From: a virus
Taxonomy: Duplodnaviria; Heunggongvirae; Uroviricota; Caudoviricetes
Virus record (IMG/VR): IMGVR_UViG_2897328257_000005
Location: 1-11,749 of that record
Length of the DNA: 11,749 bases
Strand: one strand, 5' to 3'
How positions within the stretch are numbered: the stretch's first letter is position 1; each line of letters opens with the position of its first letter. Of this stretch, positions 1 through 3,000 are shown piece after piece. The position numbers were made by a program.

Positions 1-3000
1 ATGCGAATTGAGATCTGTATCGCTAAAGAAAAAATCAGCAAAATGCCAAAAGGTTCTGTTCCTGCCCTACAGCAAGAAATGCTGCGACAAATCAGTAAGC
101 GTTATGACGATGTAGAAGTGATCGTTAAATCTGCCAGCAATGATGGACTCACTATTTTAAGAGCCGTGGATAAAGAATCCGCGCAAGAGTTTGTACAAGA
201 AACGCTTCAAAATGTCTGGGAAACAGCGGACGACTGGTTTATTCACTGACTAAAAAACGTCAACATGCAGAAAACTCGCTATATCCGGCAAAAATGGCAT
301 CGCGAATGAAGTATGTAACCGCGCACGGGCAAAATACGGACTTCCGGAAATCTGAAAAATCATCCATATCAACAGGATGCACGAAAAATGAGAGTTCCGT
401 CACTTCCGGAATTAACTTTTCCGTGGCAGTATTAGTCCGGCATAGTGTATACCTTCACAATAATGACATAATCAACGCAGTTCATGGGGGAGGTGATGGT
501 CCCCCATCTTTTTGTCTGTTATTCCTGTGCCCAGCCAACCCTGTATGCCAGGATCTCATCCGCACTGCTCAGCGATTCCAGGTCCTTCTTCATGGTGCGC
601 TGGCGAATGTGGATTTCCATCCCTTTAGTGAACATCGCCTGCTCTGCCGCTTCACTCAGCGCAATAAGCTCTTCTGCTGTCACCGGCACATCATTGTTTT
701 CCGCATCCGTCCAGAAAAACGCCTCCGGCAGTTTCCCCGCTTTCGCTGCCGCCACCGATGGCTCAAGACGCGTCTGCGTTGACTTCCCGTAGTCCCATTT
801 CCGGCCATTGTGCTCAAACGTGTAGTTCGCCGCCTCCATCGCNNNNNNNNNNNGCAAAAGCATCCGCAATGTCTCCGGAAGTACACCCCGGATGGGCTTC
901 AATGAATTTCTGAACGTCATTCAAAAGACTCATGATCACCCCCTGAATCCTGCCGGGATCTGGCTGTAGTCCACGTTGTCGTAACTGGCTTTGAAGTACG
1001 GGTCCTCGCGTCCGGCTACAGATACCGCAGGAACTTCCCAGGATTCTTCGAAATGACGATCCGGGCCAAAGAACGTGACAGCCTGTTTCACAAATTGTGT
1101 GCCGCTGTTACCCATCGCAGATACCCAGCCCGCGTAGCGTTTCACACCTGCCAGCATGGTTTCGGGTTTTACCCCCTCATTCAAACGGGCTTTCCAGGCT
1201 TTGAAGGCTGCAGATTTTGAATTGCCACCAGCACGTTTGGGGTATGCCAGCCATGCCTGCTCAAACTCCGGAGAGTATTCCGATCGGTTTGAACGAACTC
1301 GCACAGACTCATCAGCAGATGCACCAACAGCTATTGGTTCATTGACTGGTTCTTTGACTGGTTCAAAAGAGTGACTGGTTCTGGGTGAATCTCCTGCACT
1401 ACCCCCTGGTGCAACTCCTGCACTACCTGGTGAATTTGCTGCACCAGATAGTGAATTATTTGCACTACCCCCTAGTGAATCTCCTGCACCATCAAGATGA
1501 AGGAGATAGATATTACTTGAGTTACCTTTTTCACCTTTCCGGGTGACTTTTTTTACCAGCCCGGACTCACAAAGGGCCGCAATATGATTCATCACAGAAC
1601 GTTTGCTAATCTCGCACTGGTCAGCAATATGCTGGTAGCTGGGCCAGCACTCACCCTGATCGCTGGCATTATCAGCCAGCTTAATCAGAACCAGTTTTCG
1701 CAATGGATTTCCCACTCGAATTTTCATCGCTTTAACCATCAACTCCATACTCATGCAGCACCTCCGAGATGCTTCATGTTTTTTCCGGAGCGAAAGGCTA
1801 TAAGCGGCATACTGACGCGGTAATTACGGCCCAGCGGTTCACAAATCACCTTCTGACATTCACGGTCAACCAGGCTAACACGTAGAACATGCCCTGCAGG
1901 CGTGGTGTACCACTGACCCGGACGAGGACAACGGAAAGTCTGATTGGTAAAACGTTTGAAAATATTCCGGATCATTTGCGCCCCCTTGCCTCTGAAGGGT
2001 TCAGCGACAAATTTATGAGACTGGCCAGTAGCGCCGCGTCGTTGATGCGGTCATACAGACTTACAGCCAGCGGGGATTCGGCTTTTGCCAACATGGGATA
2101 AAGCTGCTGCAGCCAGACCTTGTGGATTACCGACAGGTGGGAGTAAAGCACGCTGGCGTTATCTGCGGCATCGCTCAGCGTGGATGGCTTTGAAAGCAGT
2201 TTTTCCATCTGGTTAAAGGCATTTATGTATGCCTCTTTGAACCGGGCAGCACGTTTACCAGTGAAGCCCATGGCAAGAAACGCAAAACCGTCGCGGGTGA
2301 TTTGGTAACAAGGGAGTTTGCGGCCTGATGCGTCGGTGTATTCACTTAACACAAAATTGTGTTCAGTAAATTCAGCGGAACATTCGAGGTTTCTAATTCT
2401 ATCTAAAACCCGCTCATGCCGTTTAGTAAAGTAATTAGCTACTGCAAGAGATGTGGTGACAACGCGACCATTGATAATCGTGATTTCAGGGTGAGATTGG
2501 GTTGGGAGAGTAGTCATGGTGACAGCCCCTATGTTGAATTCAATGAACTCACCACCAAGGCTTTCCACGACCATATAGGTGGTGAGACGTACAGGGGTGG
2601 AAATACCGGTCAACATAGAACCCGGCCCAACCGAAGTTGGCCCTGCACGCCCCACCATAATTTGGGCGTAACGATGCTCATGACACGAAAAAACCGCATG
2701 AGCGCGGTTGTGCTCTATATTGAATTTCGGGTTTCCACGCCCGGCCCCCGCTTTATAAGGTGCCTGAGCAGTGTAACGTCCCGGAATTGCAGAATCAATA
2801 TGCTGGTGGTCCTTCACACTCAACAAAATCACGCCTGAATTTCCACAAAGGACTAAAGCACTCATGCGGGTAGTCTTTGCGAAGATAGATAACGCGCTGT
2901 GTTTCTGGCTCCCAACGAATAACATGAACATAAAGTCCTCTTCCGTCACGAAACCAGCGGTTAAGTTCCTGCACAACTCGCCCCCCACAGTCAGGTAAAG

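Follow-up and report, generated by a model that had tools for sequence, protein, structure and literature searches.

A candidate lambda-style replication origin inside the initiator gene of an initiator-only lambdoid phage module

The stretch of DNA analysed here (the window) comprises positions 1 to 11,749 of the IMG/VR virus record IMGVR_UViG_2897328257_000005 (Caudoviricetes) and includes the early region of a temperate phage of the lambdoid type. Within the window, positions 1343-1489 are probably the replication origin of the phage, embedded in that part of the replication initiator gene which codes for a disordered linker. A candidate origin resembling that of lambda had been proposed at this place in the first-pass annotation, which was made from the sequence of the window alone, and the comparison with relatives now lends it strong support: the repeats covary with the predicted recognition helix of the initiator, are read in two frames, are phased at 21-24 nt and are strongly enriched in the linker.

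Iterons within the initiator gene

As outlined in Table 1, the initiator gene carries five palindromic iterons, whose starts are separated by 24, 21, 21 and 24 nt. The five tandem GTGAAT...TGCAC units at distances of 21-24 bp, which had been described before, are present, one of the five starting with GTGCAA. The pattern GTGMANNNNNTKCAC matches five times in the 11.7-kb window, every time inside the array, as compared to 0.10 expected matches, and none of 200 shuffled sequences reached five; Tandem Repeats Finder reported a period of 24 nt with 4.6 copies over the whole array. On the gene strand the iterons (GTGCAGGAGATTCAC and variants) are read first and the GAACCAGTCA repeats thereafter. 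All repeats, iterons and TGACTGGTTC alike, lie inside the initiator open reading frame (ORF) and encode residues ~89-138 (GAGDSLGGSANNSLSGAANSPGSAGVAPGGSAGDSPRTSHSFEPVKEPVNEP), the five iterons covering aa 89-124 between the parts which code for the winged helix-turn-helix (wHTH) and for the C-terminal domain (C-domain). Their position in the linker-coding part was confirmed by the ORF map and by predicted disorder, since AlphaFold2 models aa 91-157 as disordered (pLDDT <50).

The initiator matches Pfam HTH_36 (E 1.8e-11, aa 17-67) and PHROG 270 'replication initiation protein' (E 3e-88), and its gene is 97-99% nucleotide-identical to annotated replication-protein genes of SfV (orf39), mEp460, cdtI, 1720a-02 and Stx2a_WGPS2 (AP012537), the initiator being 98.5% identical to its counterpart in the latter. 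The Pfam search gave no match to Phage_rep_O and a weak, sub-threshold one to DnaD_N, and a PDB sequence search with the initiator returned nothing relevant; some families of related N-terminal domains (N-domains) are named 'O-like' in PHROG. A single wHTH domain is predicted by AlphaFold2 for aa 1-88 (pLDDT 80-93), with a beta wing at 67-85 that follows helices at 3-11, 17-29, 40-47 and 51-64. Foldseek with this domain retrieved generic wHTH proteins including the N-domain of DnaD, none of them significantly. Outside the N-domain the models are of low confidence overall; the C-domain was modelled as four-helix with moderate confidence and is presumed to be a protein-protein interaction domain. 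When the C-domain by itself was used as a query, the proteins retrieved were largely fragments, none of them usefully annotated.

About 170 relatives were compared in total. They were collected by tblastn against phage records, by a scan of viral contigs for the conserved block described below, by protein searches and by a scan of species-representative genomes with an alignment of the N-domain, which yielded 80 prophage loci in Pseudomonas, Aeromonas, Shewanella, Xenorhabdus, Marinomonas, Aliivibrio, Avibacterium and other hosts. A scan of the viral contigs with the whole protein gave only 97-100% identical copies, which were used for copy-number variants and not for covariation. Almost every relative carries 3-8 palindromic 15-mers (5-N5-5) at the equivalent position, palindromic repeats being present there in every diverged relative examined, and the flanks found in the family lengthen the dyad to 19 bp (T-R-GTGMA-N5-TKCAC-Y-A).

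Among about 90 of these relatives the iteron half-site covaries with the predicted recognition helix. The helix S[KR]RSV[MI]xH[IV] is accompanied by the half-site GTGMA at more than 60 loci, and a single change of Asn56 to Arg (..SVMRHI, ..TAMRHI) by GTGAC. Likewise, SKSAVK.HI is paired with TGTGCC..GCACA, SKSAVRNHI with TGCCA-N5-TGGCA, SRSTVKSHI with GGGCA-N5-TGCCC and SKSTAMRAV with GTGTC. Furthermore, natural chimeras (P0175-P0177) combine a different N-domain and its own iteron-type linker with a remainder that is almost identical to the window protein. The palindromes would be suited to binding by dimers of the neighbouring winged helix.

Phasing and reading frame point in the same direction. 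In the family, 233 of 248 iteron spacings measure 21-24 nt, and spacings of 22 and 23 nt are paired, which restores the frame. Iteron DNA is read in two frames within one gene in 48 of 70 genes (..SAGDS.. versus ..VVQEIH..), and the linker peptides of the different classes (GAGDS, PVPPKST, SPPSD, VTESH) are unrelated, the DNA architecture being shared. The density of the motif amounts to 26.7 per kb in the linker versus 0.017 per kb in 237 kb of flanking sequence, an enrichment of ~1600-fold.

It may be argued that such repeats are a by-product of a low-complexity linker, generated by slippage or by selection for flexible Gly/Ser/Ala/Pro residues, and that the DNA itself has no function. The region does encode a disordered linker, the five units of the window are in frame, and among near-identical E. 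coli genes the iteron number varies strongly (1, 2, 5, 7, 8 or 9), as slippage predicts, with GAACCAGTCA units numbering 3 or 4 (P0150, P0136/P0138 (L296 4266-4340), P0108, P0110, P0123, P0128, L017/L018 and cdtI (L093), which has eight iterons). However, slippage does not account for one motif that is read in two frames as unrelated peptides, that is phased at two helical turns and whose half-site tracks the recognition helix, nor for class linkers that differ in peptide and agree in DNA architecture. We therefore regard a functionless by-product as hardly credible; covariation, the two frames, phasing and enrichment, taken together, would exclude a purely protein-level or slippage origin of the repeats. 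The observation which the first-pass annotation had named as contradicting an origin, namely relatives that keep the linker without the repeats, was not made: the linker consists of the repeats, in 1-9 copies.

Two of the spacers in the array contain a run of five C or G (Table 1). The last two iterons of relatives are separated by a spacer that reads either yAGGGGGTr or yAcCCCCTA. The run is thus kept in either orientation though the peptide changes between GG and PP, which suggests that it meets a DNA-structural requirement between particular iteron pairs.

A different function of the palindromes would be regulation, i.e. intragenic roadblock autoregulation, copy control or handcuffing by the initiator, with the true origin elsewhere in the phage. 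Sites within the gene's own transcript could indeed stop RNA polymerase, the array is accompanied neither by a clear A+T-rich 40-mer nor by a DnaA box, and in iteron plasmids the same sites serve initiation and control. However, extra copies which might act as autoregulatory operators were considered and rejected: at one mismatch, the only further candidate in the whole window, promoter region included, was found at chance level at 2960-2974. The array moreover stands at a fixed distance from a direct-repeat block selected at the DNA level, which fits a composite origin, and its position matches the origins of lambda and P22. A purely regulatory role is consequently quite improbable.

The region might also act as RNA, either as a structured mRNA element for translation control or as a primer transcript, given that the palindromes can make hairpins in a transcript and that the gene around them is transcribed. 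The structure predicted for minus-strand RNA over 1330-1500 was, however, no more stable than that of shuffled sequences (z -1.1, with 29 of 200 shuffles as stable), each unit offers a 5-bp stem only, and the N5 loops vary freely in relatives, which makes a function as RNA exceedingly improbable.

The conserved direct-repeat block

The iterons are followed, in gene orientation, by a block of direct repeats. TGACTGGTTC occurs exactly at 1343, 1355 and 1372, that is in three copies within 40 nt (1343-1382), a count which is weakly significant for the window as a whole (9 of 200 shuffles gave at least three at up to one mismatch). The first-pass annotation had counted these three repeats among the iterons; they are present and exact alongside the five units, but they are an element of a different kind from the palindromes, belonging to an invariant block rather than serving as specificity iterons.

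In essentially all relatives CCAGAACCAGTCACTCTTTTGAACCAGTCAAtGAACC (gene orientation) starts 3 nt past the last iteron (18 nt from start to start), and the position of the block is constant across every iteron class and every C-domain. The first 14 nt of the block show at most two mismatches in 78 of 89 genes and at most four in 88 of 89, and directly after the block the sequences of the relatives are unrelated. The block was matched in at least 120 viral contigs, with one copy each. Among the 109 contigs with enough upstream sequence, 108 belong to the N-domain family, and the remaining one (L242) looks truncated or frameshifted. In distant relatives, mEp554 carries a degenerate block and Vibrio phage D96a two TCCTAACA repeats at the equivalent place.

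Codon usage was compared for 43 genes whose N-domain DNA is less than 85% identical and whose hosts include Vibrio, Pseudomonas, Shewanella and Enterobacteria. Where the amino acid is shared, the fraction of identical codons was 0.93 in the block versus 0.39 in codons 1-70, and codon choice in the block was uniform (Arg AGA 41/41, Ser AGT 41/41, Ser TCT 40/40, Thr ACC 32/32). At six Shewanella/Parashewanella loci the first half of the block is retained as DNA and translated in another frame, giving HPEPVT in place of PRTSH; the frame of the EPVxEP half never varies. Evidently, strong selection acts on the block at the nucleotide level.

What this selection serves is a separate matter. The block coincides with the junction where N- and C-modules swap, and it could be a recombination linker at the module boundary or be kept for the peptide RTSHSFEPVxEP, in either case without being part of the origin. 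The complete divergence right after the block, the joining of P0175-P0177 exactly there, the tblastn matches of many relatives which stop at residues 138-142, and the constant frame of the EPVxEP half all speak for this explanation. On the other hand, the codon identity among distant hosts calls for continued selection on the nucleotides rather than occasional exchange, the first half persists as DNA where its peptide has changed, and the block consists of direct repeats at a fixed 3-nt gap to the last iteron, occurs in the N-domain family only and once per contig. A role mainly in recombination or as a peptide is therefore rather unlikely, and either role is compatible with one in the origin. 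We tentatively take the block for the other half of the origin, at which the duplex would unwind or the helicase enter; this assignment, which is possible though somewhat doubtful, is favoured because the block is placed like the A+T-rich region of lambda and is built of direct repeats. The block is also a candidate for a second site of the initiator.

On the other side of the array lies the least stable duplex of the gene, an alternative candidate for the unwinding element (1491-1540). Its GC content is 0.33 and the nearest-neighbour energies of its 30-mers range from -32.5 to -33.9 kcal/mol, as compared to a window mean of -40.4, which is near the top 1% of instability in the window (-33.0 kcal/mol). 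In 65 of 70 relatives the GC content of the equivalent 42 nt is below that of the remaining N-domain sequence, but the low GC content there may merely reflect the peptide KGNSSNxYxL. There was no cluster of GATC at the origin, and a promoter and terminator scan around the initiator gene revealed nothing above chance.

The C-terminal tail and helicase supply

The initiator ends in the tail peptide YDNVDYSQIPAGFRG. In a BLASTP comparison with E. coli DnaT only the C-terminal nonapeptide aligned, with 8 of 9 residues identical. The 'DnaT-like segment' of the first-pass annotation accordingly holds for the last ~9-13 residues and does not extend to the domain or the fold, since the Pfam DnaT domain (PF17948, DnaT aa 89-154) was unmatched in the initiator and no match to the DnaT fold was found. 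The DNA-binding domain of DnaT whose structure has been solved does not include the tail, and I173, P174, G176, F177, R178 and G179 show no variation among 17 orthologues.

In the initiator family the tail behaves as a swappable module on one globular C-domain (..DYSQIPAGFRG, ..DYGQSDCNW, ..FGESGENLNF, ..FGKSSDKLTF). The three tails that do not resemble DnaT are found with genes for a DnaC-like loader and a DnaB-like helicase directly downstream of the initiator gene (AsXd-1, P0179, P0217, P0145), and the locus P0145 otherwise has the same upstream genes as the window. Where the tail is DnaT-like, PerC-like, Dam, LexA-DNA-binding, RusA and KilA-N genes lie downstream of the initiator gene. No loader or helicase gene was found downstream of the initiator in complete relatives with this tail; in the window itself, the downstream sequence is interrupted by a run of N (843-856). 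The same module, with no helicase or loader gene nearby, is carried by SfV, mEp460, cdtI and Ayreon, all of them isolated phages.

Among 162 distinct members, a phage helicase gene within 2.5 kb downstream was present in none of the 62 with a GFRG tail versus 30 of the 100 with other tails; for other tails with at least 2.4 kb available the fraction was 23 of 47. For the association, Fisher p is 1e-7. Downstream helicase and loader genes were called by blastx against reference loaders and helicases. A regular expression for the Walker-A motif had been tried as a proxy and was dropped, as it apparently misses DnaC-type loaders, whose Walker A ends in GKN and not in GK[ST].

A second type of initiator shares the N-domain family and the block but has an unrelated C-domain. 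It comprises 305 aa and ends in GGRDINQISRPDNTVPPGFRG, which is identical to the DnaT tail at 15 of 19 positions (the 19-residue near-copy being RDINQISRPDNTVPPGFRG). Its gene is followed by that of a DnaC-like loader without a helicase, which is the dnaT-dnaC order of the host (L177, L187 with the initiator at 72-1001 and the DnaC-like gene at 1004-1744, L194, L196, L263, L269, L270). Many other initiators of the family end in short tails of acidic and then hydrophobic residues (..WKDFI, ..EDPLI, ..ISEDF, ..TSDDL, ..WEDFL), recalling the C-terminal tip of SSB.

The extreme C-terminus looks like a general slot for docking peptides in this initiator family. On the simplest reading, the DnaT-like tail would link the initiator with the host machinery for DnaB loading, through contact with DnaC, DnaB, PriA or PriB. 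The dependence on a host primosome-type pathway, which had been suggested from the tail before, gains support from a module without helicase or loader gene and from a GFRG tail that never occurs together with a phage helicase. Structures of the preprimosome leave the link from DnaT to DnaB/DnaC open, and a cryo-EM study of 2026 calls this step unknown (PMC13377028).

Table 1 Features of the window discussed in the text. Positions refer to the window unless given as residues (aa) of the initiator.
Feature	Position	Strand	Remark
Replication initiator gene	936-1754	-	272 aa; N-terminal winged helix, disordered linker, helical C-domain, C-terminal tail
C-terminal nonapeptide SQIPAGFRG	939-965	-	copy of host DnaT tail SQIPPGFRG
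Helical C-domain, coding part	966-1304	-	aa ~151-263; helices aa ~160-230
Degenerate fourth unit of block	1331-1340		GAACCAATAG
Invariant block	1343-1384	-	gene orientation CCAGAACCAGTCACTCTTTTGAACCAGTCAAAGAACCAGTCA; three direct GAACCAGTCA units
Family-conserved core of block	1347-1384	-	~37 nt
Five-iteron array	1385-1489		core 15-mers GTGMA-N5-TKCAC; predicted initiator-dimer sites
Iteron 1	1385-1399		GTGAATCTCCTGCAC (+ strand reading)
Spacer, 9 nt	1400-1408		TACCCCCTG, with C5/G5 run; between the two iterons nearest the block
Iteron 2	1409-1423		GTGCAACTCCTGCAC (+ strand reading)
Iteron 3	1430-1444		GTGAATTTGCTGCAC (+ strand reading)
Iteron 4	1451-1465		GTGAATTATTTGCAC (+ strand reading)
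Spacer, 9 nt	1466-1474		TACCCCCTA, with C5/G5 run; between the first two iterons in gene order; palindromic CACTAGGGGGTAGTG junctions
Iteron 5	1475-1489		GTGAATCTCCTGCAC (+ strand reading)
Least stable duplex of gene	1491-1540		adjoins array on the other side from the block; alternative candidate unwinding element
Winged-helix N-domain, coding part	1491-1754	-	aa 1-88, predicted
Predicted recognition helix	aa 51-64		KRSVMNHIAALCES
74-aa ORF	1751-1975	-	phrog_1153, unknown function; overlaps initiator start codon
Rha/Ash ORF	1972-3123	-
CII-like ORF	3120-3677	-
cro-like ORF	3670-3930	-
cI-type repressor ORF	4028-4720	+	Peptidase_S24 and HTH
Integrase	10463-11749	+

Proposed initiation, related systems and genomic setting

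From these results a sequence of events can be proposed. Dimers of the initiator N-domain would bind the five palindromes of 15-19 bp, which are placed 21-24 bp or about two helical turns apart and therefore on one face of the DNA, and would form a complex similar to the O-some of lambda. This complex would destabilise an adjacent element, for which the GAACCAGTCA block, 3 bp downstream in gene orientation, is the best candidate and the low-stability region on the other side of the array the alternative. C-domain and tail (..DYSQIPAGFRG) would then recruit the helicase loading of the host, either DnaB-DnaC directly or via PriA/PriB; a recruitment of this kind is proposed because the module encodes neither helicase nor loader. 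Binding and unwinding, like the place where the helicase enters and the partner of the tail, are inferred here from sequence comparison.

Several observations weigh against this interpretation or parts of it. Consensus positions 1-3 and 13-15 of the iterons were fixed by the regular expression of the search, so that flanks, spacing, frames and enrichment are the informative features. In the window the five iterons share one reading frame, with spacings that are multiples of 3, and the argument from the frames rests on the relatives. A widespread variant of 250 aa, common in E. coli, retains the block with two iterons (the two-iteron form was found in 90 blocks of the contig collection) and another has one, hence either fewer than five copies suffice or the prophages concerned are defective. 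With a GC content of ~0.43 the block is only moderately A+T-rich and about 1 sd less stable than average. No DnaA box (TTWTNCACA) was found in the whole window and no IHF consensus near the origin. Part of the conservation of the block could serve or reflect recombination, though the codon identity across distant hosts means that recombination alone cannot explain it. The association between tail and helicase gene, finally, rests on about two independent tail acquisitions in related sequences.

The general plan is that of the lambda ori/O and lambdoid Stx O-ori systems, in which the origin is likewise located inside the initiator gene, between the parts for a DNA-binding N-domain and a recruiting C-domain (PMC8022706; PMC7466680). 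Lambda also has several repeats of ~19 bp with an internal dyad, a second element after the iterons in the direction of transcription, and a rightward early operon in which cro and cII precede the initiator gene. The window differs in that its initiator is of the HTH_36 and not of the Phage_rep_O type, that there is no gene for a P-type loader but a DnaT-like tail, and that the block consists of direct repeats of ordinary composition, whereas lambda has a 40-bp A+T-rich stretch. In P22 and phage L distinct iterons lie inside the distantly related origin-binding-protein genes 18, each class with its own repeat (PMC8022706). Iterons are thus intragenic and class-specific there as in the family of the window, but the P22 and phage L modules encode their own helicase (gp12) and the window module none.

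Iteron plasmids such as RK2, R6K, F and pSC101 share with the window a winged-helix initiator and iterons about two turns apart; in them an adjacent direct-repeat element is opened, which in some cases is bound as single strand by Rep (PMC4081077, PMC10602881). Plasmid Reps, however, contain two winged-helix domains and bind the iteron as a monomer, whereas one wHTH is predicted here and the palindromes suggest dimers. Furthermore, the window lacks DnaA boxes, and its origin would lie inside coding sequence. E. coli DnaT shares the D..SQIPxGFRG tail with the initiator, but its DNA-binding domain is absent from the initiator by Pfam, and DnaT is a factor of fork restart whereas the initiator is predicted to bind an origin sequence-specifically. 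Taken together, the origin would be of the lambda-style intragenic kind within an HTH_36-type, initiator-only module, as present in the Stx-phage 'Eru6' group, SfV and mEp460.

The same module is found in the 'Eru6' region of Stx phages (type phage Stx2a_WGPS2, AP012537), with a Rha/Ash gene and an HTH_36 protein upstream of cI (PMC8951638). Of the replication proteins of Eru phages nothing is known, according to that paper (PMC8951638), and the text of the Eru papers, including PMC8951638, makes no mention of iterons or a replication origin. A full-text search for the iteron, block and peptide sequences returned unrelated primer matches only. The invariant block, the two-frame iterons and the mimicry of the DnaT tail with its link to helicase genes are absent from the literature that was searched; the review of Weigel and Seitz (2006) may already list this type of module.

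With respect to the genomic setting (Table 1), the 74-aa ORF next to the initiator gene was considered as a conserved partner of the initiator and rejected, as its occurrence is confined to close relatives (cdtI, Salmonella 118970_sal3, E. coli prophages) and does not extend to the initiator family at large. The run of N directly downstream of the initiator gene comprises 14 positions and is spanned by ORF 519-920 (minus strand, 133 aa). This ORF is chimeric: its first 23 aa match phrog_2383, a small phage protein family, and presumably are the start of the gene following the initiator, and aa 26-133 are the C-terminal domain of a tail fibre (DUF4376, PHROG tail fibre). It is therefore likely that scaffolds were joined or sequence was masked here, and the DNA at positions 1-842 may not adjoin the replication region in the phage.

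Elsewhere in the window, ORF 5872-6696 (plus strand) encodes a YfdQ-like DUF2303 protein (E 2.6e-92) and ORF 6812-7360 (plus strand) a YfbR/YfdR-like HD-domain protein, both resembling the E. coli CPS-53/KpLE1 prophage. YfdR was reported to bind DnaA and the yfdQRST cluster to inhibit initiation at oriC (PMC4776307). On the basis of this report and the two ORFs the phage may dampen host initiation and yet exploit the helicase of the host. Within the cI-type repressor ORF, Tandem Repeats Finder located 3.3 tandem copies of a 9-nt unit, TGATGTCAT, at 4348-4377 (score 39).

A wider reading joins both halves of the module: the block would be a universal cis-acting component of the origin in a very large family of gammaproteobacterial prophage initiators, retained as nucleotides across changing iterons, C-domains and hosts, and the tail a DnaT mimic that gives initiator-only phages access to the DnaB loading of the host. 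We put this forward as a conjecture that has a real chance of being correct and a greater one of failing in at least one half. If it is true, the block could be a sequence-specific site of unwinding or single-strand binding for an invariant part of the N-domain, comparable to DnaA-trios or the repeats in plasmid duplex unwinding elements (DUEs), and the same DnaT peptide would be the sought contact between the PriA/PriB/DnaT preprimosome and DnaB-DnaC (or PriA). The observation on the tail makes the hand-over from DnaT to DnaB-DnaC a question of direct peptide binding.

The module drives the replication of temperate phages of medical relevance, namely of Stx2-converting 'Eru6' phages, of the serotype-converting Shigella phage SfV and of the cdt-converting phage cdtI. 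The location of the putative origin would hence provide a defined target for studying or blocking the amplification of toxin genes that is linked to induction. The natural table of specificities, in which variants of the helix are matched with variants of the iteron, including the exchange of Asn for Arg with that of A for C, may be useful for engineering orthogonal origins. Furthermore, the array appears to be a clean case of selection at the DNA level overriding coding in a disordered linker, where one motif is read in two frames.

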